Made by a program: the position numbers and the translations under genes. A stretch of DNA of 64,000 nucleotides from the IMG/VR virus record IMGVR_UViG_3300046787_000438, positions 88,412 through 152,411 of that record, one strand, 5' to 3'. Below, in pieces: positions 42,300-62,809 of the stretch. This stretch comes from a virus. A model generated the notes under the pieces. That model did no database searches, had not been told where the DNA came from, and saw only the letters and a program-made list of their open reading frames with translations. Each line of letters opens with the position of its first letter. Positions within the stretch are counted from its first letter, which is position 1.

Positions 42300-43733
42300 A
42301 TGGGTAAAAGTATCATGGAACAGATCTCGTCGCTTCCAGATCAGGAGCGATACGAGATTCTCGCTGGCATGGATCCAGATGCTCTCGTCTGGGACTGGTC
42401 CGTTTGGGGTAGACCTGAACAGTTCTGCCCACCTGGAATTGACTGGAACGTTTGGCTAGTTCTTGCTGGTCGTGGTTTTGGTAAAACCCGTCTAGCCTCC
42501 GAATGGGTCCGCGAGCAAGCAAAATATACAACCACTGGACAACGCCGTTTCGCACTTGTTGCTCGTACTGCTGCTGACGTTCGTGACGTTATCGTTGAAG
42601 GCGAGTCTGGAATTATAAATGTCTCGCCTCCTTCCGAGAAGCCACTCTACGAACCTTCGAAGCGTCGTCTAACTTGGCCCAACGGAAATACCGCTACCCT
42701 TTTTACTGCAGATGAGCCTGACTCGCTTCGTGGTCCTCAGTTCACCCATGCATGGGGCGATGAGATTGCAGCTTGGCGTCAGACCCCAGATGCCGCAGGT
42801 ATGACCGCGTTTGACAACTTACGAGTTGGTACTCGTCTTGGGGCAAACCCTCAGATGGTAGTAACTACTACCCCGAAGCGCGTCCCGCTTCTCTACAAAC
42901 TTATTGAAGAATCTCGCACTGATCGATCTGACGGTAGACCACCTAACGTGAAGATTACTCGAGGATCTACTCTAGATAATGCTGGTAACCTTTCTCAGGC
43001 GTACTTGGATACTATTACTGGCGTTTATGAAGGCACGTCTCTAGCTCGTCAGGAGCTTTATGGTGAGATGCTGGATGACGTCGAAGGTGCTCTATGGAAT
43101 GAAGAGATGGTCGAGTCGGCCCGTGAATCCATCTACCCATTTTCGACTCCTCTACGAGTTATTGGTGTTGACCCATCTGTTGCTGAAAATCCCCGCGACG
43201 AGTGTGGAATTGTGGTCGTGGCTTCCTCTGCAGAGGGCGATCTATATAAGCGCAATGCCTGGGTGCTCGAAGATGCGTCAATTCATGGATCTCCAGACAC
43301 CTGGGCGAGAAAAGTCGTTGAGATGGCTCGCAAATGGGGCTGTCCAGTTGTCGCTGAGGTCAATCAGGGTGGTGCATTGGTTAAAAATGCCATTCTTTCA
43401 ATTGACCCAACGATTAAAGTGCTTGAAGTTCATTCAAAATATGGAAAGCAACTTCGTGCAGAGCCAATTGTGCTTGCATATGAGCAGGGACGCGTCCACC
43501 ACGTCGGGTATTTGCAAGATTTAGAGTCTCAGATGTACTCATGGATACCAGAAAGCTCATCGAAATCTCCTGACCGAGTGGATGCACTCGTTCACGCCCT
43601 CACTGCGCTCCTAATTAAGCCACCTCCAGGCTTTTCAGGCGGAAAAATACGTGCAAAGAGCTTCGCTGACCGTAAATTGGGCGTGACTAGCCCAAATAGT
43701 CGTCCTGCTGGAAGAATTTTCAGGGTTAAGTAG
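42300..43733 (+). CDS. terL: terminase large subunit
   Basis: AGRGFGKT, LRGPQF..AWGDE, TTTP, RQEL.GE, IGVDP, SPDRVDA. Confidence 0.95.
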   Translation: MGKSIMEQISSLPDQERYEILAGMDPDALVWDWSVWGRPEQFCPPGIDWNVWLVLAGRGFGKTRLASEWVREQAKYTTTGQRRFALVARTAADVRDVIVEGESGIINVSPPSEKPLYEPSKRRLTWPNGNTATLFTADEPDSLRGPQFTHAWGDEIAAWRQTPDAAGMTAFDNLRVGTRLGANPQMVVTTTPKRVPLLYKLIEESRTDRSDGRPPNVKITRGSTLDNAGNLSQAYLDTITGVYEGTSLARQELYGEMLDDVEGALWNEEMVESARESIYPFSTPLRVIGVDPSVAENPRDECGIVVVASSAEGDLYKRNAWVLEDASIHGSPDTWARKVVEMARKWGCPVVAEVNQGGALVKNAILSIDPTIKVLEVHSKYGKQLRAEPIVLAYEQGRVHHVGYLQDLESQMYSWIPESSSKSPDRVDALVHALTALLIKPPPGFSGGKIRAKSFADRKLGVTSPNSRPAGRIFRVK

Positions 43734-44400: not shown

Positions 44401-46128
44401 TTGGGTATTTTCAAGAAAGAAAACGCTAAACCGAGTGCTCCTCGGCAGAACGTTCGCGCTTCGGCCCCTAAAAATGCCACTCGCGTTGCTCCAGGGATTT
44501 CTGTTGACTCTTTTGGCATAGTGTATGCCGAGCCACAGACATTTAACTCACCGCGCCCACTTACCGCTGCTGCCGCGCAGGTAAATCTCCAGGACAAGGG
44601 CGAGGCAGAGCTATTTAAATCACGTAGACAGTCTGCATCGTCAAGCTGGCAGTCAGAGGCGTGGGAATACTACGACTCAATCGGCGAGATCAAATACGCA
44701 TTCAACCTAGTTGCATCCGTTGTCTCGCGTATTAGACTTTATGCTGCTGCTATCTCCAACCCAAACGAGACCCCGTCTCCAATTGACTCTGTAGAGAAAA
44801 TTGATGCTCGTCTATCTGCAGCTGCAACACGCGCACTCGATCGACTAAGTTCTGCATTCGGTGGACAGCCTGGCCTTTTAAAGGATGCTGCCCTAAACCT
44901 CCAGGTTACTGGCGAGTGCTACCTAGTTCAAATACCAGAGCGTGTTGGCTCTGGACTCCCTGAGACATGGGACATGCGCTCAGTTGATGAACTTCAGGTT
45001 GACTCTAAGGGTAATTACGTCATCAACCCTCGCCGTGATGTTGGCGGTGGAAGCTCAATGATGTCGCAGGCGAGTAAGGACATCCTCGCTCTCCCTAAGG
45101 GAGCATTCGTTGGTCGCATTTGGCGTGCCCACCCACGGTACACTCAAGAGGCTGACAGCTCGCTACGCGGACTTCTAGACCTCTGTGCGGAACTATTGCT
45201 ACTCAACCGTACTTTCCGCGCTACGGCCCGTTCTCGCCTCAATGCGGGTGCTTTGTATCTGCCTGATGGTTTGTCAGTAGCTGCGTCTCCAGACCCAGAC
45301 TACCCATACGACGAAGATGGCAACTACAACGAGAATTTCACTGCTGAAGAAGCTGCTGACGACTTCGAAGACCAGCTCATCGATGCAATGACTACTCCAA
45401 TCAAGGACGAGGACTCTGCTAGCGCAGTTGTTCCACTTATCATCCGTGGTCCTGCAGAGCTTGGTGACAAGATCAAGCAGTTCAAGTTTGAGCGTTCATT
45501 CGACCCAGCTCTCGCTCAGCGTGCTGACCGCGTGCTAGAGCGCATCATGCAGGGTCTTGATGTTCCGAAGGATGTTGTAACAGGTCTAGCAAACGTTAAG
45601 TACTCAAACGCACTTCAGATTGACGAAGCACTTTACAAGGCACACATCGAGCCTCTAATGCTCCTTATTGTCGATGCGCTTACCGTCATGTACTTGCGTC
45701 CATACCTAATTGCAAACGGATACTCCGAGGATGAAGTTCGTAATGTTTGCATCTGGTACGACCCATCTCTAGTTGCTACTCGCAATGACCGCGCAGCAGA
45801 TGCTGACATGGGCTTCGACAAGATGGCTGTCTCGTATGACGCATGGCGTCGTGCTCATGGTTTCTCTGAGGCAGACGCTCCAGACCCAACTGAGCTCGCA
45901 CTTCGCCTAGTTGTCAATAAGGGTATGGTTACTCCAGAATTTACTGAAGCCATGCTTGCAGCAGTTGCTCCTGATCTCATGAATAAGATTCGTCAGATCG
46001 CGTCTGAAGCTACTGGCGCAGCTATTCCACCAGAGGTGGAGCAGATGTTGCAAGGCCAGCCTGGCCCTGCAGCCACAGAACCAGCAGCTACTGAAGCTGC
46101 ACCGCCACTAGCAGAACCAGAGGCATAA
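44401..46128 (+). CDS. portal protein
   Basis: position after terL; WQSEAWEYYD.IGE, RIWRAHP, ARSRLNAG.L, GLDVP. Confidence 0.85.
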   Translation: MGIFKKENAKPSAPRQNVRASAPKNATRVAPGISVDSFGIVYAEPQTFNSPRPLTAAAAQVNLQDKGEAELFKSRRQSASSSWQSEAWEYYDSIGEIKYAFNLVASVVSRIRLYAAAISNPNETPSPIDSVEKIDARLSAAATRALDRLSSAFGGQPGLLKDAALNLQVTGECYLVQIPERVGSGLPETWDMRSVDELQVDSKGNYVINPRRDVGGGSSMMSQASKDILALPKGAFVGRIWRAHPRYTQEADSSLRGLLDLCAELLLLNRTFRATARSRLNAGALYLPDGLSVAASPDPDYPYDEDGNYNENFTAEEAADDFEDQLIDAMTTPIKDEDSASAVVPLIIRGPAELGDKIKQFKFERSFDPALAQRADRVLERIMQGLDVPKDVVTGLANVKYSNALQIDEALYKAHIEPLMLLIVDALTVMYLRPYLIANGYSEDEVRNVCIWYDPSLVATRNDRAADADMGFDKMAVSYDAWRRAHGFSEADAPDPTELALRLVVNKGMVTPEFTEAMLAAVAPDLMNKIRQIASEATGAAIPPEVEQMLQGQPGPAATEPAATEAAPPLAEPEA

Positions 46129-46129
46129 T

Positions 46130-46585
46130 ATGGACAGCAAATACATGGACCTAGCTCAAAAACTGGCTGGCGTTCTATCCGACACGGTGAGCGCAAAGTT
46201 TATCTTGCATGGCTACCACTGGAACGTTCTCGGTCCAGACTTCGGCGAGTATCACGAATTCTTCGGGACACTATATTCTGACGTAGATGGGTCTATCGAT
46301 CCACTGGCCGAGAATATCCTAAAGCTTGGCTACCCAGCGCCCTACCTACTGGCTGATTTCCTGGAGATGTCTTCTATCAATGAAGAGCGTCTAGACGGTA
46401 CTTCATCTCAGTTCTTGCTCCAGTCAGCTCTTCGCATTATGGAGAGTTTGGAGAACAGCCACACTGAGGCGTTCCACATTGCAGAAGCACATGACAAGCA
46501 GGGATTGATGGACTTCCTTGCTGGTAGAATTGACATGTATGCCAGGTGGGTTTGGCAGATCAAGGCCTTCCTAGGAGTTCGCTAA
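46130..46585 (+). CDS. dps: Dps / ferritin-like protein
   Basis: HGYHWNVLGPDF.EYHEFF..LY...D.LAE.I..LG. Confidence 0.88.
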   Translation: MDSKYMDLAQKLAGVLSDTVSAKFILHGYHWNVLGPDFGEYHEFFGTLYSDVDGSIDPLAENILKLGYPAPYLLADFLEMSSINEERLDGTSSQFLLQSALRIMESLENSHTEAFHIAEAHDKQGLMDFLAGRIDMYARWVWQIKAFLGVR

Positions 46586-47762: not shown

Positions 47763-50525
47763 ATGCTTGAATTGACCCCACTGATTGCCGATGGTAACTC
47801 TGACGCAGCCCGCCGTGCACGCGTAAAGCTTCAGCCTCGTGACAAGAAGGGCCGCTGGATTCCAACTGGTGCTAGCCTATTCGCGTCTATCAGGGACGCT
47901 GCTGGCAAGGTTTTCCGTATTAATGGAAAAGCTATTGGTGGAACTGCCACTAAGAAGGGCGAGCGCAACGACATCCGCATGCTCGTTGGTAAGGGATACG
48001 AGAGCCTAGGCATCTCACCTAACACAGTTCTTACTGTTAACCCTAAGAATGGTGAGCTTGAGTCTAAGATCAAGCTAAACAGAGACTTTTTGAAGAAAAA
48101 GGGTATCGACCCTGACCTTCAGCACACACTGCCTAAGGCTCTAGACAAGCAGCCTCAGACCCTAGCCGAGATGAAGCCAGAGAAGGCTGACAAACTAGAT
48201 ATCGATCTAGCTTCAGCTGGCCTGACCGCAGATGAAGACAAGACTTTCCGCGCAGAGCGCGACCAGGAGCCACTAGCTAAGCTCCCGCCAGCTATGGAAG
48301 ATCAGGCAGTTACTGGCGAGGATGTGAATGCCTTAGTTGATGATGTACCTGACTTCAAGTCTGGTGACTCAGCTGACTCTGCAATTGCAGATGCCTTGGC
48401 CGATGCATTTTATGGTGGCGACGTACCAGAGCTTGACCAGCTTGTAGATAAGGCCGCGACTCCAGCACCGAAAGCCGAAGCTGTAAAACTTTCAGACCTA
48501 CAAAAGGGCGACATCGTCGCTGGTCCAACTGGTCCGCTAAAGTTCGATCGCGCAGAGAAGCGCATCAACGGGAACTGGGATATTTATGTAGACGATGGTA
48601 GCGGTCGTGGCCCTATCAACATGGTCGCAAAGAGCCACCCGAGCGGTCTATCTGACTCGGATTTCCAGGGCGCTACCATGAAGAGACTTAAGAAGGCAGA
48701 TGCTACTGCAGCACCAGCTACGAAAGCTACTCCTGCAGCACCAGCAAAGCCTTCAGCAACTAAGCCAGCAAAGCCTGCTGCCAAGCCAGCTAAATCACCA
48801 AGCAAGTCTCCAGCACCTAAGAAGGCTGCTGTCCCTGCTGTTGCAACTAAGGTAGACGCAAGTCGCAAGGATGACGGCAAAGACATCGTACCGTCAATCG
48901 TTCCTCAGGAGCAGATGCGCAACATTAAAGTTGCCCAGCTTATGGACGAGAATGGTAAGCCACTATGGACTCGCAACAACACTGGCAAGCGTGTTGCAGT
49001 TGAAGATCCGAATGCGCTATACAACGCCATCCTAGAGAATAACCCCCAGGCTAAGGTGAAAGACAACGGCGCGATTGTTCTAGAGCGCGGAAACTTCACC
49101 GACCACAATGGTGACGTATACAAGTATGAAGTCGCTCTAGCTAAGACTCACGGAAACAAGTACGTTGAGCAGTACTCATTTACCGACAGCAACGGCAAGA
49201 CTCAGAGCTTCCAGCACTACGACTATAAAGACTCTATCGCGGCAATCTACGGTGATAAGAATGGTGTTCGCACGTTCCGTGACCAGATGCTTGGAGTGTC
49301 AATTCCAGGAAAGCAGCCGCCGACTCGCGACACCCTTAACTACTTTGGTAAGGACAAGACTCTTGCTGACCGTATTAGGTACTTCCGCGGAAAGCGTGCC
49401 GAAGGATATACCCCTACACCAGCCGATCTAGCTGATAATAAGAAGCACATCAAGCTACTAACCCCTGAGGAAGTAGTTCAGAAATACCTAAATGGTAGAC
49501 CTGAAGTATTTAACGAATCTGGCGAGGCTGCTGGAACTAAGCTACAGAGTTTCGTTGGCGACGCATGGGAGGCCATCGCAAATGATGACTCTCAGACTTT
49601 CGAACAGATGATGGTTCAGCTTCTTGGAAGACTTCCAGACAACGAGGAGTCTCGCAACCTTCTAGTCAACACCCTGCGTGACGGGATCAAGCAAAAGTTT
49701 AATGGAACTACTAAGGGTCGTTCGCTAGCTACCTTAGCTAACAACATCGAGAAGAAGATTATGCAGGAAGGCTGGGATCTTCGAGACACTAACAAGCGTC
49801 CTTGGACCAGCCGCGACGGCAAGACTATCGTCATGCCAGGCAATAAGGTTCGTTATTGGAACTCTACTGGCGAGTGGTCTATCGGTGAGGTGTCGTCTGT
49901 TAACAAGCCAAAACAGGGCTACGATGACATGGCGACTATTACATTCGCCAACGGCAAGAAGGCAGTACTTAGAACTGACAAGCTAGATGTACTAGGCGCG
50001 GAATTAGACCCATGGTTGAATGAGCACGACCAAGATTCTACAGTCAGCGAATACAAGCCGAGCCCTAAGGGCAAGGAACTTCGCGAAGCCCGAGGATATC
50101 TAAACTTTGGTGACGAGCAGCTTCAGCAGGATGACAACTCTTCGACTCCAACTGGACAGCCAAGCACTACTAATCAAAATGCGACAGCTCCATACCTAGG
50201 AACTGCTGGACAGGATAATAGCTCTAACGCTACTCCTACTCCTGACGCCACTCCTGCCGCTCCCGCTGCACCTGCAGCTCCAGCTCCAGCTCCAGCTCCA
50301 GCTCCAGCTCCAGCTCCAGCTAATGCTCCAGATCCAATAGAGGATATGGAAGCTGGCGACTCCTGGCATAGTGAGGATGGCGACTATCTAGGGTCGTTTG
50401 TAGAAGCTCAGCTAGTCACCTCGGACGATGGGACTACCGAAGCCTGGGCAGTAATCTACATGGATGCTAACGGGGACGAGCAGTTAGAGATAGTTCCGAA
50501 GGGTGAAACCCGCGGCCCAAAATAG
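47763..50525 (+). CDS. large head-associated protein (N-part of predicted -1 frameshift fusion)
   Basis: QPRDKKGRW motif, SH3-like segments, PA linkers; ends GGC CCA AAA TAG. Confidence 0.8.
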   Translation: MLELTPLIADGNSDAARRARVKLQPRDKKGRWIPTGASLFASIRDAAGKVFRINGKAIGGTATKKGERNDIRMLVGKGYESLGISPNTVLTVNPKNGELESKIKLNRDFLKKKGIDPDLQHTLPKALDKQPQTLAEMKPEKADKLDIDLASAGLTADEDKTFRAERDQEPLAKLPPAMEDQAVTGEDVNALVDDVPDFKSGDSADSAIADALADAFYGGDVPELDQLVDKAATPAPKAEAVKLSDLQKGDIVAGPTGPLKFDRAEKRINGNWDIYVDDGSGRGPINMVAKSHPSGLSDSDFQGATMKRLKKADATAAPATKATPAAPAKPSATKPAKPAAKPAKSPSKSPAPKKAAVPAVATKVDASRKDDGKDIVPSIVPQEQMRNIKVAQLMDENGKPLWTRNNTGKRVAVEDPNALYNAILENNPQAKVKDNGAIVLERGNFTDHNGDVYKYEVALAKTHGNKYVEQYSFTDSNGKTQSFQHYDYKDSIAAIYGDKNGVRTFRDQMLGVSIPGKQPPTRDTLNYFGKDKTLADRIRYFRGKRAEGYTPTPADLADNKKHIKLLTPEEVVQKYLNGRPEVFNESGEAAGTKLQSFVGDAWEAIANDDSQTFEQMMVQLLGRLPDNEESRNLLVNTLRDGIKQKFNGTTKGRSLATLANNIEKKIMQEGWDLRDTNKRPWTSRDGKTIVMPGNKVRYWNSTGEWSIGEVSSVNKPKQGYDDMATITFANGKKAVLRTDKLDVLGAELDPWLNEHDQDSTVSEYKPSPKGKELREARGYLNFGDEQLQQDDNSSTPTGQPSTTNQNATAPYLGTAGQDNSSNATPTPDATPAAPAAPAAPAPAPAPAPAPAPANAPDPIEDMEAGDSWHSEDGDYLGSFVEAQLVTSDDGTTEAWAVIYMDANGDEQLEIVPKGETRGPK

Positions 50526-52654
50526 ATAGGGCTGTAGCTCCAGGAACACCTGCTGCAGCCCCGAAAGCCGCTAAAAGCTTACAGGGCGTAACATTCTCTA
50601 AGTCTCTATCTGGGATCAGAGAGTTGAAGACTGGCGCTACCCTAGGTAGACCTCGAACTACCCCTATTGACCCCAGCTTCCATGATTTGAAGAATATTGA
50701 AGCTCATATCTTCAGCACCCTTCCAGCTTCAGTAGATCTAGACGGTCTAGACGACAAGATCCAAGCCGTCCGTTCTGCTAGAACTGACATGTCTACAGAT
50801 ATCAACGTAGACCCAGCGAAGCAGTCGATCTACGAGGCAGCGCTTAAGGATCTTCTAGACTTCCACCACGATCAGTTCGATAAGGGCGAGAGCTACACCT
50901 TCCCGCTATCACTGATCAAGTCAGATCAGGCACTAAGCCCACGTGGCATTGCTAAGATTGCTGCTGCCTCTCATGGTAGAGACAGGTCTGGAAATGCTCC
51001 TAAGTCTGTAGACACTCTAGTTGACGAGTCTGTCAAAAACTTTAGAGACAAAACCCCTAGAATCAATGATGTCTTGTCAGCTCTCGGCAGCGAGTGGCAG
51101 GCACAGGGAGCTAAAGAGTATCACGATGAACTTACTAGTAAGTTCTCTAAAAAGTATTCTGACCTAGGTCTCCCTCGCGCAGAAGCTGATTTTAGGTCTA
51201 AGGTTAGAGCATCGAACATGCTCAACAATCAGGCAGGCAATCCAGCGCTTGCCCAGGTAAAAGTATCATCTAGCTCGGCCAACGCGGATATTTTCGTCTA
51301 CATGAACGATAACGGCGACGGCACATTAACGCCAAGCCTAAGTGGCGCTCAGGCTAAATACGTGAATGATGCAATCGCTAAGTCGCGTGCCTTCAGATTC
51401 AACAAGGACAAGACCACTGTACACGCGCTAGGCAATTCAACATATCTACCGCCAGCAGTTGCCAGCACTATCGGTGATAGCGATGCAGCATTTACCTACT
51501 TCGGGGGTGACGGGGTTTACCTATATCCAGACAGAGTTTCTGGCATTTTAGGAAAGCTCCCAGATGACCCTAAGTTCTACTCGACTGACATAAAGACCGA
51601 AGCAGACGCCTTCAACCACATCGTCGTCCATGAAACTGGGCACCTTCAGATGTACAAGCTATGGGGCGACGACAAGAATAGCGGTAGAGCTGCACTAGCT
51701 GCAGACATGGCTAAGCTCAATGTTTCTCAGGATGTTGGCACCTACTCGCGCAATAGTGCCTCAGAGAGTTTCGCGGAGCAATACGCTAAGTATCTACTAA
51801 CTGGAGATGCCTCTCAGCAGTTCCTAGATCTGCTCTCTTCTAAGGGCCTAACAAAAGCCCAGATAAACAAGAAGTGGCGAGACGCATACACTGCTAAGTC
51901 AGCTCAGCACGCAGCGTTCATAGATAACTTAGTTAAATTTGCCTCCGACTTCGGAGACGGAACTAATCCAAATGATCCTGAAAACACCATTGATTATGGA
52001 ACTAAAGATAGCCTTTATGGATCTAAATGGGCAAGTAAGGTTGCCAGACTAGTCGGATATCGTCAGAATCTGCCAGCAACTGTCTCGGCCATTGACCCTA
52101 GTACTCACCATGTTATTTATCGTGGAGTGGATGCTTTCGGCAATAAGACTGGCTGGGACCTGCACAATGACTTTAGAACTAAGTCAGAGCCATGGTATGG
52201 ATTCGGAATCTTCGGAGATGGTCAGTACTTCAGCACCATAGAGTCTACAGCAAGAAGCTTTGGCTCCGTAGTGGCAAAGATGGGCATAGATAAGAATGCT
52301 AATTTGGCATCCTACTATTACAACAGAGGCGGAAAACCCGTTATTGCTAAGAACGGATCTCAGTTCAACATAGAGGAATTCTATGCTGACCTATATAGCA
52401 ACATAATTCCAGACTATATCCGCAATGAAATAGACCCAGACATGTCTGACCAAGAAGTAGCCAGACTGGCTCGAAAGATGCTGAACTCTGCGGGCCTCGG
52501 AGGAGGAAGTGTGCTAGATCAAGATGACGCTGCAATCGTTGCTGGTTGGGCAGGGTTCGATGGACTAGAGGTCGTCAGAGGTGGCGAGTCATATTTCGTG
52601 GTTCTAAATAGAGGAATAATCCAAATGTTGCTACCTAAGGGATATACAAGTTAG
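50522..52654 (+). CDS. zincin metallopeptidase + ADP-ribosyltransferase-like extension (-1 frame of the upstream gene)
   Basis: VHETGH...SESFAE; IYRGV, FGDGQYFS, GFDG...E.YFVVLN; frame open from 50516. Confidence 0.7.
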   Translation: MDRAVAPGTPAAAPKAAKSLQGVTFSKSLSGIRELKTGATLGRPRTTPIDPSFHDLKNIEAHIFSTLPASVDLDGLDDKIQAVRSARTDMSTDINVDPAKQSIYEAALKDLLDFHHDQFDKGESYTFPLSLIKSDQALSPRGIAKIAAASHGRDRSGNAPKSVDTLVDESVKNFRDKTPRINDVLSALGSEWQAQGAKEYHDELTSKFSKKYSDLGLPRAEADFRSKVRASNMLNNQAGNPALAQVKVSSSSANADIFVYMNDNGDGTLTPSLSGAQAKYVNDAIAKSRAFRFNKDKTTVHALGNSTYLPPAVASTIGDSDAAFTYFGGDGVYLYPDRVSGILGKLPDDPKFYSTDIKTEADAFNHIVVHETGHLQMYKLWGDDKNSGRAALAADMAKLNVSQDVGTYSRNSASESFAEQYAKYLLTGDASQQFLDLLSSKGLTKAQINKKWRDAYTAKSAQHAAFIDNLVKFASDFGDGTNPNDPENTIDYGTKDSLYGSKWASKVARLVGYRQNLPATVSAIDPSTHHVIYRGVDAFGNKTGWDLHNDFRTKSEPWYGFGIFGDGQYFSTIESTARSFGSVVAKMGIDKNANLASYYYNRGGKPVIAKNGSQFNIEEFYADLYSNIIPDYIRNEIDPDMSDQEVARLARKMLNSAGLGGGSVLDQDDAAIVAGWAGFDGLEVVRGGESYFVVLNRGIIQMLLPKGYTS

Positions 52655-53224: not shown

Positions 53225-53599
53225 ATGGCAACTAGTAGCATTAGCGACGTATGGTTTTACGTCAACCCAGAAAACGAGCAGATTGATGCCGTTTTGTGCT
53301 ACTTTCCTCTTGGTATGTCCATTAGACAGGGCAAAGACTGGGAAATCACCACTAAAGAGGACTCTGGCATCTACGATGTCCTAACTAACCACAACGTATA
53401 TCAGCTCGACTGGGACTCAGACACTAAGGTCATCGACGATTCTTTCGACTTCGATAACTATGACGATGTTACCCACATTGCACTAAAGATGTATGACAAC
53501 GGGGAGCTAAACCTAGCTGAGCTTAAGAAGTACGCTGAGCTAATCTACACTGCATCTAGCGCCGAGGATATGCCTCAGGCGGAAGATGCCAAGGAGTAA
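53225..53599 (+). CDS. acidic hypothetical protein
   Basis: ORF in head operon. Confidence 0.7.
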   Translation: MATSSISDVWFYVNPENEQIDAVLCYFPLGMSIRQGKDWEITTKEDSGIYDVLTNHNVYQLDWDSDTKVIDDSFDFDNYDDVTHIALKMYDNGELNLAELKKYAELIYTASSAEDMPQAEDAKE

Positions 53600-56500
53600 A
53601 GTGCCAAAATTTCTAGGTATTGCTAATGACTTGGCAATTTTCACTAACAACGGTCTATATGCTGCTGTAAACACTTCCACAAATTTTGTAGAGGACTACA
53701 CCCAGTCTGAGCTATCTGCAATCGTTCAGTCGGAATTCCTTAAGACACTGCAGGTAGTTGTAGAAGATTCAGTGGTAGAGCTAGCCGAGGCAGCTCTGCT
53801 ATCTATCGAGTCAATTACTGCAGGAGGCGCACCTGCTAGCCGTCTCTATACTATTCCTGGTGGCGTTCAGGCAGAGGCTAAGAAGGCACTTAAGTGGCGT
53901 CACGAATCTAAGCGTGGCGGAACTCCAGTCGGCCTAAACACTGCTCGCACTCTTGCAAAGGGTGGCCAGATTGGCATCGAAAAGGTTCGCCACATCGCTA
54001 AGTATTTCCCTCGTCACGAAGTTGACAAAAAGGGCAAAGGCTGGGAGCCAGGCGAAGAGCACTTCCCATCTAACGGCCGCATCGCTTGGGCACTCTGGGG
54101 TGGCGACGCTGGACAGCGCTGGGCCTCTGCAATTGTAGAGCGTGAAAATAAGAAGGCTCTTACATCTGGCGGATACGCACTGCCAGGCTATGAAGAAGAT
54201 GCTGCAATCTACACCTCTGAAGATTCATATGGTGCAGACATCTCTGCCTTCAAGGAAGCTCACGAGCTTGACCCATACGAAGGTCCAGAATTTATGGTCA
54301 GAGTACGTTTAGACGACTCTGGCATTGACCGTTTATATAAAATTGACATTGACGGTCAGGTGTATCTGTGGGACGGCTCGGCATGGGACAACCTAGGTCA
54401 CGTTGATGGTGACGTTTACTCGTATGACCAGGCTTTAGACGATCCGTACGACACCTGTGAGAAGACTCACGTAATTATTGACCCTTCTTCAGCAGTAGTT
54501 ATTTCGGCATTCCTACAGGAGCGCCCGTTCCAGCCAGTTACCCTAGACGAGATCGATCCAGAAGAAGCTCAGCTAATGAGTGACGGGTTGGCTGACGAAG
54601 ATTTCACAATGATCGATAGAGTCATGACTGCTGCAGGAGAGCCAGTAGCTAAGCCTGCAACTGCCACTGACGGTAACTACACTCCTGAAGAGCGTGCGAA
54701 GAATACCCAGGCGCAGCCGCGCGATGCTGGTGGTCTCTTTGTTAAGGTAGGAAGCCGTACTGTAGTTGGTGGAGACGCTAGACGTGGTTCTGGCACGATC
54801 ACCGACATCGACACCACCACTGGTAAGGTTCGCGTAAGACTTGACTCTGGCAAGGTCATAAACGTAGATGCTGGGTTTACCCAGGCCGAGTCTAGTGTTG
54901 ACGCACCGACAATGGTCCCTGGCAGAGATTCACTGCCTCCAATTGATTTTGATTCAATCCTAGGCGAGCCTAGAACCCCTATTGATTCTCCTATAGCCCA
55001 TCTACCAGGCACTCTTCCTAAGTTGACTACTAAGGATATCCACTCTCTAATCAATGGCTTGCCTGCATACTACAAGAGCTCTAGAGACTACAAGCTACTT
55101 CCAGATAAGCCAAAAGGCATGAAGGCTTACGACAAGAAGTACATAAAAGAGCGTTACGGTATTAACGCAGCCGCTACCCCTGAAGATGGAGCTATAGCTT
55201 CGCCTGCAGAGTCAGACGTCACCCCAAAATACCTAGCACTTGTATCGCCTGACGACATGACTGCCGTTATGGATGTTGTCGCATTAGTGCCAGCTAGTTC
55301 AACTTCGACCGAGACAGTACTGTATGAGCGCAGAGAGGGTAAGTGGCAGCCAAACGGTCAGATTCTAAGTGACCTAAAGTCAGCGACACCGCCTCCAGTA
55401 ATCGAGCTCGACACTCAGGAAATTCTGAACGATGTGTTGAAGCAGGCCGATGATGCTTCTAAGCCAGTACAAGCTTCTGCATACCAGTTCTCGATTTTCT
55501 GGGAGCGAGTTGTAGAGCCACTACTAGCGGCTCGTAGAGAGAACTTTGGCTACAAAGACACGGATTCATCTCTGACTGAACACTCCGATGAGGACCCGTG
55601 CTGGGACGGGTATAAGCAGATCGGCTTTAAGGATAAAGACGGTAAGCATGTACCTAACTGCGTAAAGGCAACCTCTACAATTGCTGCAGCTGGCGGATTT
55701 GATCGTAACCGAGGCAATGCAGAGGCTCTTCGAGAGTACTGGACCCACGGTAAGGGTGCTGCCAAGATCCGCTGGGGAACTCCTGGTGACTGGACCCGCT
55801 GCGTTCGTAATCTTTCAAAGTACATGGGACCTCGTGCAAAGGGCTACTGCCAGCTTCGTCACAAGGAAGTTACTGGTGTATACACTGGAAGCCGAATGAA
55901 CCCAGGGCACAAGAACGGCTCTAAGAACTTCTCTTCTCTATATCAGAGCGAGCAGCAGTTCGCTGACACCATGATTGAGAAGGCCCGTCTATCGGCAATT
56001 GCAGCAGATGCTCGCGAGAAGATTAGCCTAATTGCTTCAGCTGACTCGGGCGTTGCTGGCTCTAAATTTTCGATCCCTATGCTAGTACCAGAGGGCGTCG
56101 AGTCTGGTGACGGACGTAAGTTCGCAGAAAACGCGATCTCTGTTCGTGAACTTCCAGTTCCGCTTCTATGGCAGATCAAGACTGGTGCTGGCCACGATGG
56201 TTCCGTTGTAGTTGGTCGAATCGACTACATCGAGCGTATCGAAGGCGGCATGGGAAATGCTTATGGTGTATTTGACAACGGTCCTTACGGCCGTGAAGCA
56301 GAGCGCCTAGTGCGTAACGGCTTCCTACGTGGAGTTTCGGTTGACCTAGACAAGTTCGAGGCCAAAGAAGATAAGCAGCCTAAGGAAGAGATGGCTGAAG
56401 ATGGTGGCCAAGAGATAGGTAAGGATAAACTTACCATAAACAAGGCCCGCATTATGGCTGCTACAATTGTAGCTAAGCCAGCATTTCAAGAATGCTCTAT

Positions 56501-57722
56501 TTTATTGCAAAAAAGCGGGGATCAGGAGGATAACGTGACCCCAGAAGACGGCGTATACGAAGAGACTACACAGGATTTTTCAGATCTAGAGCCGATGCTT
56601 GCATCTGGGTTCCTGGAGTCTGAGATTCCTATGACTCCTCCAGCTGATTGGTTCGAGAACCCAGGTTTCACTAAGGCAACCCCATTGACAGTAGATGCTG
56701 ACGGCCGTGTATACGGACACATCGCTGCGTGGAACGTGAACCACATCGGACTACCTCGTGCAACCAAGCCACCTCGCTCGCGTAGCAAGTATGCATACTT
56801 CCACACTGGAGTAATTCGTACCGAAGCTGGTACCGACGTTCCAGTAGGTCAGCTAACTCTCGCTGGCGGACACGCCCCTCTTAATGCTGATGCAATGTCA
56901 GCAGCTAAGCACTACGACGATACAGCTTCAGCTGTAGCAGACATTCACGTTGGTGAAGATGAGTACGGTATCTGGTGCGCTGGGTCCCTACGTCCAGGAC
57001 TGGAAGAAATGCAAATTCGCGCTCTACGTGCGTCTGCTCCTTCAGGTGACTGGCGTCCAATTCAAGGTTCACTAGAACTTGTGGCAATTTGCCAGGTAAA
57101 CGTTCCAGGCTTCCCAACCGCTCGCGCAATGATTGCATCTGGCAAGATTCTTGCCCTTGTTGCAGCAGGCGCTAACTACATGGCACTAATGAAGAGCCAT
57201 GCAGTAGTTACACTCACAAACAAGGCTGACTTGCTAGGTCAATTAGCCAATACAGCTCCAGACCTCAAGTCTAGAGTTAGAGAGGCTAAAAAAGCGATGC
57301 GTGAAGCAAACCTACAGGCCATCACCGCTAGTGCAGCAGATCTACGCGATCGTGCTCTAGTAGCGGCTGCAATTGCAGAGCTTGCTACCATTCCAGAGAA
57401 AGAGCGCCTAGCTCTTGCTAAGGAAGGTAAGGCAATGCCTGATGGTTCATTCCCTATTCGTAATGAAGAAGACCTTAAGAATGCGATTCACGCTTACGGT
57501 CGCGCTAAGGCTTCTGACCGCAGAGAGGTGCGCAAGCACATCACCAAGCAGGCTCGCTCACTCAAGCGTGCTGACCTCATCCCTGAGCAGTGGAAGAATG
57601 CTGACTCTATGGAAGCTGCGGCAAAGGTAGCATCTATGCGTGCTACCATCACTGCATCTGCAAATAGCGAGGCGGTGGTGGCTGCAGCCCCAAAAGTGAT
57701 GAGATCTCAGACGCAGATTTAA
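53586..57722 (+). CDS. multidomain capsid maturation protease polyprotein
   Basis: ESGDGRKF...PLLWQ..GHDGSVVVGRI...LRGVSVD protease core; GRVYGHIA.W, SGDWR domain; DGSFPIRN..DL.NAI. Confidence 0.82.
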   Translation: MPRSKVPKFLGIANDLAIFTNNGLYAAVNTSTNFVEDYTQSELSAIVQSEFLKTLQVVVEDSVVELAEAALLSIESITAGGAPASRLYTIPGGVQAEAKKALKWRHESKRGGTPVGLNTARTLAKGGQIGIEKVRHIAKYFPRHEVDKKGKGWEPGEEHFPSNGRIAWALWGGDAGQRWASAIVERENKKALTSGGYALPGYEEDAAIYTSEDSYGADISAFKEAHELDPYEGPEFMVRVRLDDSGIDRLYKIDIDGQVYLWDGSAWDNLGHVDGDVYSYDQALDDPYDTCEKTHVIIDPSSAVVISAFLQERPFQPVTLDEIDPEEAQLMSDGLADEDFTMIDRVMTAAGEPVAKPATATDGNYTPEERAKNTQAQPRDAGGLFVKVGSRTVVGGDARRGSGTITDIDTTTGKVRVRLDSGKVINVDAGFTQAESSVDAPTMVPGRDSLPPIDFDSILGEPRTPIDSPIAHLPGTLPKLTTKDIHSLINGLPAYYKSSRDYKLLPDKPKGMKAYDKKYIKERYGINAAATPEDGAIASPAESDVTPKYLALVSPDDMTAVMDVVALVPASSTSTETVLYERREGKWQPNGQILSDLKSATPPPVIELDTQEILNDVLKQADDASKPVQASAYQFSIFWERVVEPLLAARRENFGYKDTDSSLTEHSDEDPCWDGYKQIGFKDKDGKHVPNCVKATSTIAAAGGFDRNRGNAEALREYWTHGKGAAKIRWGTPGDWTRCVRNLSKYMGPRAKGYCQLRHKEVTGVYTGSRMNPGHKNGSKNFSSLYQSEQQFADTMIEKARLSAIAADAREKISLIASADSGVAGSKFSIPMLVPEGVESGDGRKFAENAISVRELPVPLLWQIKTGAGHDGSVVVGRIDYIERIEGGMGNAYGVFDNGPYGREAERLVRNGFLRGVSVDLDKFEAKEDKQPKEEMAEDGGQEIGKDKLTINKARIMAATIVAKPAFQECSILLQKSGDQEDNVTPEDGVYEETTQDFSDLEPMLASGFLESEIPMTPPADWFENPGFTKATPLTVDADGRVYGHIAAWNVNHIGLPRATKPPRSRSKYAYFHTGVIRTEAGTDVPVGQLTLAGGHAPLNADAMSAAKHYDDTASAVADIHVGEDEYGIWCAGSLRPGLEEMQIRALRASAPSGDWRPIQGSLELVAICQVNVPGFPTARAMIASGKILALVAAGANYMALMKSHAVVTLTNKADLLGQLANTAPDLKSRVREAKKAMREANLQAITASAADLRDRALVAAAIAELATIPEKERLALAKEGKAMPDGSFPIRNEEDLKNAIHAYGRAKASDRREVRKHITKQARSLKRADLIPEQWKNADSMEAAAKVASMRATITASANSEAVVAAAPKVMRSQTQI

Positions 57723-58366
57723 AAGAGCTTAAGAAGGCCAAAACAGAGGCCGATAAGCAAACTGCAGACGAGATCAAAGCCGCCGAAGAAGTTTCAAAAA
57801 ACAAAGGTAAGCCCGCTCCTACCGATGGAGAGATAGACCCAAAGACTGGTACTCCTAAGTACGTGTCTGGTGTTAACCAACCCCGTGATGCTAAGGGTAA
57901 GTACCGCACAGTTCTTGCACGACTAAAGCAGAACCTTGGAGTTGCTGGATTGGCTAAAGCCCTAAAGCAGGCTGAAGAGGCAGAGAATCTTGACTTCGCT
58001 GGTGACTATGTCGCGTCAGCTGGAGCTAGCGCTAAGCTGCTCGATACCATTGATAGAATTGACTCTGGAGCTTTGAACGCCAAGGCCCTAGAAAATGTTA
58101 AAACATCAGCTGCTGAACTAGGTAAGGTAATTTCAAACCTACCGCTACCTTTCGGTCAAGATGCACAAAAGATAAAGTTTAGCGATTTGCCTTCGGGGCT
58201 CAAGGATCTTGTAGATTCTATGATCACCCGCGTGGAGGCAAAAATCGGTAAAAAGGATGCAGATATTGCTACGCAAGATCTAAAGTCCTACATGGCTGGA
58301 GCAGATCTCTACTCGCAAGGTGAGATCCAATCTCAAATGAGTAAGCTGCTCCGACTCCTTACCTAA
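57695..58366 (+). CDS. C-terminal extension in the -1 frame of the protease polyprotein
   Basis: frame open from 57689; contains QPRDAKGKY; weak independent GTG start. Confidence 0.65.
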   Translation, partial: SDEISDADLKELKKAKTEADKQTADEIKAAEEVSKNKGKPAPTDGEIDPKTGTPKYVSGVNQPRDAKGKYRTVLARLKQNLGVAGLAKALKQAEEAENLDFAGDYVASAGASAKLLDTIDRIDSGALNAKALENVKTSAAELGKVISNLPLPFGQDAQKIKFSDLPSGLKDLVDSMITRVEAKIGKKDADIATQDLKSYMAGADLYSQGEIQSQMSKLLRLLT

Positions 58367-58483
58367 AAAGTAAGGTAAAATTATCCATAGGTGGAGCGCC
58401 TCACGCCTTGTGCGTCGAGTCCCTCGGCCTTGACTGTAAATCGGACACAACCGTGTCCAATACTAACTGGCCTAGGAGGTACA

Positions 58484-60697
58484 GTGTACGACCAGATTAA
58501 GACTCAGCTAGACACTATCACTGAGCTTAGCGATGAAACACTCGCAGAGCTTCAGGCAGATATTGTCAGCCAGTTTGAAATGGTTGAGGGTGAAGACCCG
58601 ACTCCTGAGACAGTTGATGCTATGACGTCACTAGCTGACTCTCTTGACATCGTTCGCGGCGAGCTTGCAAACCGCGAGGCTATGACTGCTGAACTAGCAG
58701 CCAAAGCTGCCGAGGCAACCGCCCGTGTCAAGGGTGAAGTTGCTGGCGACGAGGGAGAAGAAATGGCTATAGACGAAAACCAGCCAACAGAAGAGGAAAC
58801 TCCTGCAGAGGACCAGCCAGTGGAAGAAACTCCAGTGGACGAGGCTCCTGTAGAAGAAGTTCCTGCAGAAGAGACCGCCGCAGCTGAGGAAACTCCAGCT
58901 GAGGAAGAAGCTCCTGCCGAGTCTGAGACTGAAGAGACCCCTGCTGATGAAGCAGAGGAAACTTCAGAGGAAGCTAAGAAAGAAGAAGAAGACGGAACAG
59001 AGAAGGCCATGAGCGCTTCTGTTGAAACCGAGACTACTTCTGATGTAGCTACTACAGATGAAGCTGCTGTTACTGTAGCTCCAGTCGAGGCTGAAGCATC
59101 AGTCGTTGAGACTGTTGCTGCGGCCGAGGAGATCGTAGAGGCATCCGCAGATGTTTCAGAGGTTGCTGAGCTTTCAGCTACCGACGAAGCCGCTGCAGAA
59201 GCTGTAGCCGAGACCGATGAGGTCGAGGAAGCATCAACCGCTCAGGAAGACGGTTCTGAACTATCAACCACAACCGAGGAAGCCACTGAGCTTTCTACCG
59301 ATGAGACTGCAGAAGCAGTAGCAGAAGTAGAGACAGCTGCAGAGCTTTCTTCAGAAGCAACTATTGAAACATCAACCGCTCTTGTAGAAGAGCAGAATCA
59401 GGAGCAGGCAGTGACCGCTGCAGCAGAACAGCCTTTCGAGGCCCCAGCTGACCGTCAGCCTGTAGTTCAGGAAACCGTAGCACCAGTAGCAATTACTGCT
59501 GGCGCTGACATCCCAGGCTACAGCGCGGGAAGCACCATCAACGATCTAAACGAAGTTGCAACTCTTATGGAGAAGCGCCTTCACTCACTACGCCGTGTTA
59601 ACGGTGGCGACGGAGAACAGCACATTGTTGCTTCATTCTCTACTCAGTACGCTGAGGACCGCTTCCTAGGCACCGACGCTGAGGCTAACACTGCTAAGAT
59701 CAACGCGAGCACCGCTCTTGTTGCATCTGGTGGTCACGGTGCCCCAGTCGAGACCAAGTACGATATCTTCGGTATTGGGTCAACCACCAACCGTCCAGTT
59801 CGTGACGCACTTCCTAAGTTCCAGGCAGACCGTGGCGGTATCCGTTACGTAACCGCACCTTCATTCGCTTCTGGCGACTATGCAGATGCTGTTGGCGTAT
59901 GGACTGCTGCAGTTGATGAGGACCCGCAGGGTGCAACTAAGTCATCTCTAACCGTTACAGCTGCTGCTGAGAACACTGCCGTCACCGACGCAGTTACTCT
60001 ACAGCTACAGTTCGGTAACTTGATGACCCGCGCGTATCCAGAGCTAATCGCTCGCCACAACGAGCTTGCTCTAGTACAGCACGCTCGCGAGGCAGAGGTT
60101 AACTTGCTTACCAAGATTGGTGCAGCTTCGACTGCAGTTACTTCTGGAACCATCATTGGTTTTGGTCGCGACTTCCTAGTCTCAGTACGCAAGGCTGCTG
60201 TTGCCTATCGTTCACGTCACCGTATTGCTTCAACTACTAAGTTGACCGCAATCGTTCCTGACTGGATCTTCGATGCAATGGCTTCTGACCTAGCTATCTC
60301 AATGCCTGGAGACAACACCCTTGGTGTCACCAAGTCTGAGATCGAGGGCTACCTAGCTCTAAGCAACGTTAACCTAGTTGCCTCTCCTGACCTAAACTAC
60401 TACGGTGCACAGGCTGGTTCAGCTGCGCTTACCGAGTGGAAGGACAGCTTCGTCTGGTACCTATTCTCAGAGGGCACATTCTTGTTCCTTGACGGTGGTA
60501 CTCTAGACCTAGGTATCATCCGCGACTCATCACTAGTTGGAACTAACGACTACAAGATGTTCGTTGAGACCTTCGAAGGTATCGCAAAGGTTGGTATCGA
60601 ATCACTAGCAATCACCCAGACCGTTAACATTAACGGTGTGGCTGCTGCTCTTCGCGACACCACTGGTGGCGCAACTGCAGCTGCTGTCGAGCTCTAA
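58484..60697 (+). CDS. major capsid (hexamer) protein with long acidic N-terminal scaffold-like region
   Basis: SD GGAGG before GTG 58484; E/A/T/P-rich linker; ALVASGG, RGGIRY, LDLGIIRDS.L..NDY..F.E.FE. Confidence 0.85.
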   Translation: MYDQIKTQLDTITELSDETLAELQADIVSQFEMVEGEDPTPETVDAMTSLADSLDIVRGELANREAMTAELAAKAAEATARVKGEVAGDEGEEMAIDENQPTEEETPAEDQPVEETPVDEAPVEEVPAEETAAAEETPAEEEAPAESETEETPADEAEETSEEAKKEEEDGTEKAMSASVETETTSDVATTDEAAVTVAPVEAEASVVETVAAAEEIVEASADVSEVAELSATDEAAAEAVAETDEVEEASTAQEDGSELSTTTEEATELSTDETAEAVAEVETAAELSSEATIETSTALVEEQNQEQAVTAAAEQPFEAPADRQPVVQETVAPVAITAGADIPGYSAGSTINDLNEVATLMEKRLHSLRRVNGGDGEQHIVASFSTQYAEDRFLGTDAEANTAKINASTALVASGGHGAPVETKYDIFGIGSTTNRPVRDALPKFQADRGGIRYVTAPSFASGDYADAVGVWTAAVDEDPQGATKSSLTVTAAAENTAVTDAVTLQLQFGNLMTRAYPELIARHNELALVQHAREAEVNLLTKIGAASTAVTSGTIIGFGRDFLVSVRKAAVAYRSRHRIASTTKLTAIVPDWIFDAMASDLAISMPGDNTLGVTKSEIEGYLALSNVNLVASPDLNYYGAQAGSAALTEWKDSFVWYLFSEGTFLFLDGGTLDLGIIRDSSLVGTNDYKMFVETFEGIAKVGIESLAITQTVNINGVAAALRDTTGGATAAAVEL

Positions 60698-61678: not shown

Positions 61679-62809
61679 ATGGCTACTCAAGAATATGCAG
61701 CTAGCATCCAGGGTGTGTCAATCCGTGTCACCCGCCTAGACGCTGCTGGTAACCTAATGGGCGGAGCAGGTAATTCATACACTACCTCTTCATTCATGCG
61801 TGTATCTTTCACCCCAGAGTACGAAGAGGGCGACGAGATCACTGAAAAGGGTGCAAACGGTGTTGTATGCGTAACATACAAGGCTCCAGACACTCTAAAG
61901 CGAATCACCATGGAACTTGCAATCTGTGAGCCAGATCCAGAGCTAACCTCTCTACTATCTGGCGGTCTACTTCTTCGCAAGAACCTAGGAACTGCTGGTG
62001 ACCCAAACAACAAGTCAATCGGTTGGGCCGCTCCTGGCGTAGGCGATGACCCTGCTGGCAATGGTGTTGCGATCGAAGTTTGGTCACACGCTGTTAAGGA
62101 TGGAAAGCGTGCAGGCGTTCTTCCATACTTCCACTGGATCTTCCCATTCGCTAAGTTCCGTCAGTCAGGCGACCGCGTTATTGAAAACGGTCTAATGGCT
62201 AACACCTTCGAAGGCTATGGTCTTGGAAACGCTAACTTCAAGTCAGGTATCGATGGCCGCTGGGAGTTCCCAATCGCTGCCGAGCGTCCATATGCTTACG
62301 CACGCGCTGACTGGGCTCCAACTGGTCTTAACGGATTCTACACTTGGACAGACGGTTCTGGTCCAGTTGTATTCACCTCTAACTCGGTGGCTGCTTCTGA
62401 CCGTAGCTCTGTAACTCTAAACAGTTACTACGCTACTGCATCTGGAACTGCTGGAAACCTAGTATTCAGCGGATCTCCTTCAATCTCAGACGGCGATCTA
62501 TTGAGTGTCAGTAACCTATCTCCAGTACTGAACGGTGACCACATTGTTACTGACGTGTCTGGAAACACAGTGACATTTGTCTCTAGCTCAATCACTGCTG
62601 ATATTGCATCAAGCGGAACCCCTAACTCGGTTCCTCGTGCTGCTAAGGTCATCGTGGTTAACTCTGCTGACGAGGCCGCAACTCCAGTAGCTACTGCGGT
62701 TACAACTCTTGCTGCAGGTGGAGACACTTACAACGTTCCTGGTAACAGAGACTACACCGCGGATGCTGCAATTGACAACATCATTGCATCAAACGAAAAC
62801 CCTAGCTAA
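61679..62809 (+). CDS. major tail protein
   Basis: IRVTRLD..G, P.YEEGDEI....ANG.VC, EVWS; extra C-terminal beta domain. Confidence 0.75.
   Translation: MATQEYAASIQGVSIRVTRLDAAGNLMGGAGNSYTTSSFMRVSFTPEYEEGDEITEKGANGVVCVTYKAPDTLKRITMELAICEPDPELTSLLSGGLLLRKNLGTAGDPNNKSIGWAAPGVGDDPAGNGVAIEVWSHAVKDGKRAGVLPYFHWIFPFAKFRQSGDRVIENGLMANTFEGYGLGNANFKSGIDGRWEFPIAAERPYAYARADWAPTGLNGFYTWTDGSGPVVFTSNSVAASDRSSVTLNSYYATASGTAGNLVFSGSPSISDGDLLSVSNLSPVLNGDHIVTDVSGNTVTFVSSSITADIASSGTPNSVPRAAKVIVVNSADEAATPVATAVTTLAAGGDTYNVPGNRDYTADAAIDNIIASNENPS

Follow-up and report, generated by a model that had tools for sequence, protein, structure and literature searches.

A probable −1 ribosomal frameshift joins a predicted zinc peptidase module to a large post-portal protein in uncultured actinophages

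The window analysed here makes up the final 64 kb of an IMG/VR viral record of 152,411 bp (IMGVR_UViG_3300046787_000438), which has direct terminal repeats and a G+C content of 46.6%. In its head gene module, two consecutive open reading frames (ORFs), here called A and B, are very probably joined in translation by a programmed −1 ribosomal frameshift at a C_CCA_AAA heptamer at the end of ORF A (Table 1). ORF A would yield two products in this way, A itself with 920 amino acids (aa) and an extended form, A-B, with 920 + 710 = 1630 aa. We favour this interpretation because the heptamer, the frame offset and a downstream hairpin are conserved among relatives, because other phages carry the same junction as an in-frame fusion, and because the −1 frame is under coding constraint 5' of any start codon.

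The −1 frame bears a TGA at 50504–50506 and is then open from 50507 to 52654 (715 codons). Its overlap with ORF A measures 19 nucleotides (nt) only (50507–50525) and encloses the heptamer; because of the preceding TGA, the two frames can be joined by a −1 shift only within these 19 nt. The hairpin follows the heptamer after a 6-nt spacer (UAGAUA) and pairs 50529–50538 and 50542–50544 with 50549–50561. Neither 200 shuffled sequences nor 166 native 50-nt windows taken from the flanking genes include one of equal predicted stability. The + strand of the 152-kb genome has nine copies of CCCAAAA. Of the 32 ORF pairs in the genome with a −1 overlap, only 5 contain an in-frame X_XXY_YYZ, and two of these five are accounted for by the CCCAAAA sites of the head module, the second of which is described below. 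A search of Rfam with the junction matched no family, and between A and B there is no terminator and no promoter above chance. The hairpin is ruled out as an intrinsic transcription terminator, having no T-run, and a reassignment of TAG as a sense codon was also rejected, since a ribosome reading through in the zero frame would encounter a further TAG after three codons, and TAA serves as the stop in some relatives.

An initial annotation of this locus had proposed a programmed −1 frameshift with a hairpin, giving products of 920 and about 1630 aa. It described an in-frame C_CCA_AAA right before TAG, a −1 frame open into an ORF at 50624 with only a TTG start and no clear Shine–Dalgarno (SD) sequence, a stem 6 nt downstream and an SD-like stimulator about 10 nt upstream. 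The sequence bears out the heptamer, the open frame, the lone TTG, the stem and both product sizes, and the frameshift itself is strongly supported by the unfused junctions, the fusions and the −1-frame constraint set out below. Conservation of the heptamer and of the frame offset in homologues, which the annotation had named as a check, holds in all unfused junctions. The SD-like element stands in part only: it is present in the window and of comparable strength in only 9 of the 20 loci.

The comparison among relatives is based on 44 database homologues of ORF A. Junction DNA was taken from viral contigs and assemblies and each junction was scored, which gave 20 distinct unfused junctions, namely the window and 19 relatives down to ~23–25% identity (L059, L060). 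Most homologues of ORF A end in R-x-P-K, or in K-K plus 0–1 residue. All 20 junctions have an in-frame C_CCA_AAA or A_AAA_AAA located 0 or 3 nt before the stop, followed by a −1 frame that is open for 261–1149 codons, and in all of them the +1 frame closes within 1–20 codons. The spacer between the heptamer and a hairpin measures 4–6 nt in 19 of the 20 and 10 nt in L059. The 50 nt 3' of the heptamer are more stable than at least 95% of native windows in 18 of the 20 loci, and they are the most stable of about 166 windows in 14 of them.

The nucleotide sequence around the heptamer is itself strongly conserved. In seven C_CCA_AAA relatives, whose ORFs are ~41–57% identical, CCCAAAAUAGAUAGGGCUG is invariant, synonymous sites included; it is altered in three more distant C_CCA_AAA members, L022 (which has TAA) and L035 and L046 (TAAGAGGGGCUG). 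Within the C_CCA_AAA clade the outer helix GGGCUG/CAGCCC is kept, and the inner helix has been rebuilt from different sequences in four sub-clades and is still paired. The hairpins of the A_AAA_AAA clade are unrelated to these; position and pairing are retained across the clades. Indels in the inner helix impaired consensus folding of the junctions with RNAalifold, and we relied on per-sequence folds instead.

What lies between the stop of ORF A and the first possible start of ORF B? The first ATG, GTG or TTG of the −1 frame is the TTG at 50624, preceded by CTATCTGGGATCAGAGAG and by no GGAGG-like site. A public gene call begins not there but 60 codons into the −1 frame; gene callers choose differing TTGs for ORF B, and in the records of relatives they leave 170–380 nt unassigned 3' of ORF A. 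Across relatives the first canonical start lies 10–132 codons after the heptamer and has no SD sequence. In the stretch from the ORF A stop to the first possible start, substitutions between close relatives number 8, 0 and 25 at the first, second and third codon positions of the −1 frame, and three independent pairs give 6, 0 and 17. The motif GRPRTTPIDPS is conserved upstream of the first start codon in L019, L020 and L047. Separate initiation therefore cannot explain this conservation.

The same protein also occurs without recoding. Long homologues of ORF A (1181–1330 aa) end in a zincin with HEFGH...EHFAESFAKY, matching HETGH...ESFAEQYAKY of ORF B, and A and the zincin domain share one ORF in five loci (L010, L012, L023, L025 and L041). 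All five read GE.RGPK-I or GE.RGPK-V, which is the junction predicted for the −1 shift in the window (..TRGPK-IDR..). They encode it as CCG AAG ATC, CCT AAG ATC, CCT AAA ATT, CCT AAG GTA and CCT AAA GTT, none of them slippery and none followed by a stop. Maximum-likelihood phylogeny of the ORF A portion places the fused group as one well-supported clade nested among frameshifting clades, and fusion and recoding are therefore evolutionary alternatives for the same protein. The fused forms surfaced only as long ORF A homologues with a shorter zincin tail; a search of 1.84 billion representatives with ORF B as the query returned none. L021 and L034, two further long forms, have no C-terminal barrel and no junction; they represent a different architecture and are uninformative on the junction.

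We envisage the following course of events. A ribosome completing ORF A would hold CCA in its P site and AAA in its A site while the 13-bp hairpin, 6 nt downstream, stands at the mRNA entry channel. Some ribosomes would slip back by one base, tRNA-Pro re-pairing with CCC and tRNA-Lys with AAA, and would then read AUA GAU AGG... and continue for 710 codons. The remainder would terminate at once on the abutting UAG; a stop that abuts a slippery run can itself promote slippage (a 'shifty stop'). The outcome would be A and A-B with the same 920 N-terminal residues, A-B being longer by a flexible linker, a helical domain, a predicted zinc peptidase of the HExxH type and one more C-terminal domain. 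In the manner of Gag-Pol, frameshifting would set the dose of enzyme cargo loaded into virions; this role and the efficiency of slippage are both conjectural.

A separate observation concerns the tRNA genes. The phage encodes ten tRNAs, among them tRNA-Ile(UAU), tRNA-Arg(UCU) and tRNA-Asp(GUC) (G000:C1:79755–79981 and 80005–80079, outside the window), and these three match the first −1-frame codons, AUA GAU AGG, whose nucleotide sequence is frozen in relatives. The match may be a coincidence, as phage tRNAs often cover host-rare codons, or it could shift the balance between termination at UAG and reading of AUA.

Could A and B simply be separate genes, with B starting at the TTG at 50624 or by termination–reinitiation at a non-canonical codon near the TAG, such as the AUA at 50522? 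The TTG is there, public gene calls split B off, and the overlap of the stop with the −1 frame resembles that of coupled genes. This TTG has no SD sequence, however, the first start shifts its place from relative to relative, and coding constraint and conserved motifs are found upstream of it. Reinitiation, for its part, accounts neither for the strict X_XXY_YYZ register nor for a stable hairpin 6 nt downstream, and the A_AAA_AAA clade has no AUA- or AUG-like codon at its stop. It is the joined protein that evolution has retained, as the in-frame fusions show, and we regard independent initiation of B as improbable.

Transcriptional slippage, in which RNA polymerase would add one A within the A-run and so bring A and B in frame, would produce an identical protein, and we consider it equally improbable as the explanation for the window. 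The A_AAA_AAA relatives have seven A's, which is near the range where bacterial RNA polymerases slip (reviewed in PMC5009743), whereas the window has only four, far too few for efficient polymerase slippage. Slippage of this kind also has no need of the codon register, of a spacer of 4–6 nt (10 nt in L059) or of a hairpin, which together are the signature of ribosomal −1 frameshifting. Polymerase slippage is implausible on four A's; in the seven-A clade it may contribute. Were the junction due to an indel introduced in assembly or sequencing, or to recent breakage of the gene, we would be looking at what is truly one 1630-codon ORF or at a decaying pseudogene. Homopolymer runs are indeed error-prone, and in-frame fused versions do exist in other phages; yet 19 further distinct junctions, drawn from independent assemblies and studies, show the same offset, abutting stop and heptamer, the fused relatives differ by non-slippery codons and not by one A more or fewer, and both ORFs are intact and conserved. 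An artefact or a broken gene is accordingly hardly credible, still less so than either of the two preceding alternatives.

Programmed ribosomal frameshifting has its own difficulties, and the following observations weigh against it or against the role that we assign to its products. The A_AAA_AAA clade could make the same product by transcriptional slippage. The SD-like GAAGGGTG forms a duplex of −6.9 kcal/mol with the anti-SD sequence in the window, beating 96% of background; it beats 90% of background in only 9 of the 20 loci and overlaps conserved Gly-Glu codons. We therefore treat it as an optional helper, a possible auxiliary stimulator. The known relatives are all uncultured: tblastn of ORF A and ORF B against 50,697 phage records returned no counterpart in an isolated phage, and blastn against isolated phages gave only a chance 51-nt match. 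Finally, ORF A has no recognisable head-protein fold, and the virion location of A and A-B is deduced from synteny.

A structural model of ORF A (AlphaFold2, mean predicted local distance difference test (pLDDT) score 71) shows a multi-domain protein of the 'beads on a string' type, small domains being joined by long Pro/Ala/Lys-rich linkers. A fold search recognised only Tudor/SH3-like barrels (Z about 7), and neither ORF A nor ORF B matched a family in Pfam or PHROGs. There is no Phage_Mu_F (MuF) match in ORF A either, and the likeness to MuF-like/SPP1 gp7 minor head proteins is one of position only, after the portal and before the protease. Matches in BFVD to large actinophage proteins were set aside as too weak, among them an ADP-ribosyltransferase-annotated protein of Gordonia phage Sixama (E 1e-4, template modelling (TM) score below 0.1). 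The best-conserved part is the N-terminal ~180 aa with a near-invariant QPRD..GRW (QPRDKKGRW in the window), and residues 3–67 share 39% identity with the N-terminus of gp82 of Microbacterium phage Pumpernickel, a 2235-aa protein in the same post-portal position. The 'head protein' label of the initial annotation holds as regards position between the portal and the prohead protease, and finds no Pfam, PHROG or clear fold match. From this position, and from the N-terminal domain shared with giant post-portal proteins of related phages, we infer that A is a capsid-associated carrier.

The motif QPRD..G(W/F/Y) recurs in the module. It is found at 47832–47858, about 54717–54743 and about 57881–57907 of the window, that is, near the ORF A N-terminus, at residue 378 of the protease polyprotein and at residue 72 of the −1 extension of that polyprotein; it is also found at residue 1374 of Pumpernickel gp84. 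One possible role is that of a tag common to head-module proteins, used in their docking or processing.

The −1 extension of A is modelled with greater confidence (pLDDT 82), and most of its disordered linker sits 5' of the first possible start codon. Motifs and modelled structure support the prediction that it carries an HExxH zinc peptidase resembling anthrax lethal factor (M34-like) and the Pro-Pro endopeptidases (PPEPs). The HETGH motif occupies residues 375–379 (nt 51629–51643) and a downstream Glu, expected as the third zinc ligand, is provided by E420/E424 in ESFAEQY; HExxH and the downstream Glu are conserved in the alignment of homologues, and as HEFGH...EHFAESF in the fused relatives. 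The fold matches the catalytic domain of anthrax lethal factor (1yqy) with Z 11.6 (191 residues aligned, root-mean-square deviation 5.5), PPEP-3 (9g0j) with Z 9.7 and PPEP-2 (6fpc) with Z 9.1. Profile searches are fainter, with a PDB profile match to lethal factor at E 0.023 and a match of the ORF B homologue P0073 to ATLF at E 8e-4, which is below the cut-off. The zincin domain of ORF B is homologous to domains of proteins that also carry ArdC, MPTase-PolyVal, ADP-ribosyltransferase (ART) or RNase T domains, as in polyvalent-protein contexts. A Foldseek match of ORF B to a cyanophage A4 pre-ejectosome (E 1.9e-3, TM about 0.1) was rejected as too weak.

The initial annotation had called this extension a protease/ART cargo, and its protease part agrees with the HExxH motif, the downstream Glu and the fold match; the ART part found no match to a hidden Markov model or profile and no conserved Glu. 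The only fold match of the C-terminal domain is to diphtheria toxin (Z 6.1), Pfam gave no match, and the matches of its homologue P0074 to PARP (E 0.024) and ART-PolyVal (E 0.12) are weak, as is an hhalign comparison with the ART-bearing P0066 (probability 0.2). Before the YFVVLNRG strand, where R-S-E-type ARTs would have the catalytic Glu of their ExE/QxE motif, homologues have E, Q, D or V, there is no second Glu, and we leave the assignment as ART unproven.

The head module contains what looks like a second programmed −1 frameshift, judged by the same kind of sequence signal. Another in-frame C_CCA_AAA lies at 57689–57695 (context 57668–58366), near the end of the 1378-aa protease polyprotein (..AAAPK VMRSQTQI, then stop), and the −1 frame is open there for 232 codons (..PK-SDEISDADLKELKK..). 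Both parts form one in-frame ORF in L065–L067 and in Pumpernickel gp84, and the heptamer form occurs only in the window and one close relative (L064). Elsewhere in the genome, a 114-codon ORF outside the window (G000:C1:1340–1684) lies shortly 3' of the point at which the tail genes run on beyond the end of the record. An in-frame C_CCA_AAT is located 15 nt 5' of its stop, and 131 codons are open in the −1 frame; the ORF is a candidate for the usual tail-assembly-chaperone frameshift.

Table 1. The A/B junction, the domains of the −1 extension and the neighbouring genes, in window coordinates
Feature	Coordinates	Strand	Details
Large terminase	42300–43733
Portal	44401–46128		phrog_776, E 7e-105
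Dps/ferritin-like gene	46130–46585		PF00210, E 2e-11; directly 3' of the portal gene
Two small ORFs			between the Dps-like gene and ORF A
ORF A	47763–50525	+	920 aa; ends GGC CCA AAA TAG
SD-like GAAGGGTG	50498–50505	+	10 nt 5' of the heptamer
Slippery heptamer C_CCA_AAA	50516–50522	+	X_XXY_YYZ register of ORF A
Zero-frame TAG stop	50523–50525	+	directly abuts the heptamer
−1-frame extension	50522–52654	+	710 codons + stop; junction ..T-R-G-P-K / I-D-R-A-V..
Hairpin	50529–50561	+	10 + 3 bp, 4-nt loop, −21.4 kcal/mol predicted
Disordered linker	50522–50671	+	frame residues 6–55, pLDDT below 50; AKSL.G..F and GRPRTTPIDPS motifs
Helical bundle domain	50672–51016	+	frame residues ~56–170; Avd-like four-helix bundle, Z 8.0, a common fold
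Zincin metallopeptidase domain (predicted)	51026–51856	+	frame residues ~174–450
C-terminal alpha/beta domain	51989–52651	+	frame residues 495–715; ART-like motifs YRG, GDGxYxST
Two small ORFs			between the end of ORF B (52654) and the protease polyprotein
Polyprotein with prohead-protease region	53586–57722		1378 aa
Major head protein	58391–60697
PHROG match to major tail protein	61679–62809
PHROG match to head-tail adaptor	62884–window end

Portal similarity identifies the phage as an actinophage, with Actinomycetia phage DSL-LC01 (72%) and Pumpernickel (62%) as its closest named records. The former was assembled from a metagenome of Dishui Lake (PMC10611076). The order of terminase, portal, Dps-like gene, A, B and large protease polyprotein is unchanged throughout the relatives. 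At the post-portal position, giant single ORFs are found in DSL-LC01 (3289 aa; L014 18333–28202) and in Pumpernickel (gp82; L015 15966–22673); in the window the position is filled by A, B and small ORFs. One giant protein and a set of recoded pieces seem to be alternative designs for this locus. A Dps-like gene right after the portal was also seen in every related contig examined (L008–L012 and the contig of P0018). It is unusual for a head module to have a fixed Dps-like protein, which could be a packaged DNA-binding or iron-handling protein.

How does this junction compare with known cases of recoding? Frameshifting in tailed phages is textbook material for tail chaperones and for short capsid extensions, lambda G/GT and T7 10A/10B being the classic two-product cases. 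The junction resembles gp5A/gp5B of Lactobacillus phage A2, where frameshifting was shown, and ORF10 of Enterococcus phage phiEf11, where it was proposed: in both a heptamer just before the stop is followed by a stem-loop, and as here the heptamer abuts the zero-frame stop, the stem-loop has about −20 kcal/mol and a virion-module protein acquires a second form with an extended C-terminus (PMC5221750, PMC5009743). Unlike the present case, their extensions measure 21 aa (phiEf11) and about 85 aa (A2) and are borne by the major capsid protein, whereas here 710 aa of enzyme domains would be added to a non-capsid post-portal protein. The site of phage A2 is reportedly also C_CCA_AAA. With the tail assembly chaperone gpG/gpGT of lambda and most long-tailed phages the junction shares a conserved −1 shift near the end of the upstream gene that gives two products with a common N-terminus at a fixed ratio, and some phages swap that frameshift for separate short and fused genes (PMC5009743, PMC10885494). 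It differs in that the gpG/gpGT proteins are small and belong to the tail module, neither product is in the virion and a 3' structure is often unneeded.

The functionally closest analogy would be Gag-Pol of retroviruses and totiviruses. There, too, a bulk structural or carrier protein is accompanied by a minority form, extended by a −1 shift at an X_XXY_YYZ followed by a 3' structure, with enzyme domains that include a protease, and the enzyme is co-assembled at a fixed dose in Gag-Pol. The proteins are unrelated, though, the ribosomes that make Gag-Pol are eukaryotic, and the packaging of A and A-B is hypothetical. Polyvalent proteins and MuF-toxin fusions, large multi-domain proteins encoded beside the portal, reportedly bring together modules of the zincin, ART, ArdC and nuclease types (Iyer et al. 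2017; Jamet et al. 2017); those are single ORFs, unlike the modules described here, which would be joined by recoding. The nearest mention that we found is in the PRFect study, where MuF-like/VIP2 pairs appear among unverified predictions only (PMC10885494). E. coli dnaX (tau/gamma) has the three-part bacterial −1 cassette as well, with an SD-like element upstream, a slippery heptamer that places tRNA-Lys in the A site, and a hairpin on the 3' side; the dnaX shift yields a truncated product, whereas here the product would be extended, and here the SD-like part is not conserved throughout. We know of no description of a 710-residue enzyme module that is frameshifted onto a large post-portal protein, conserved in a lineage and interchangeable with fusion.

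We advance a wider proposal, tentatively and with slightly less than even confidence: that large uncultured actinophages use −1 frameshifting as a Gag-Pol-like means of dosing capsid cargo. A bulk carrier with a conserved N-terminal QPRD..G(W/F/Y) docking domain would be accompanied by a fixed minority bearing swappable enzyme modules, a zincin in the present case, which would be packaged and delivered with the DNA; the cassette would interconvert with fusion and be used twice in this head module. Both the dosing and the packaging of the cargo are hypotheses at this point. Many metagenomic phage genomes, in which the downstream gene is now called with arbitrary TTG starts and gaps of 100–380 nt, would be annotated correctly once the frameshift is recognised, and about twenty natural variants of heptamer, spacer and hairpin become available for the study of frameshifting in Actinobacteria. 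The frameshift also gives a testable model of how phages fix the copy number of the effectors they inject.

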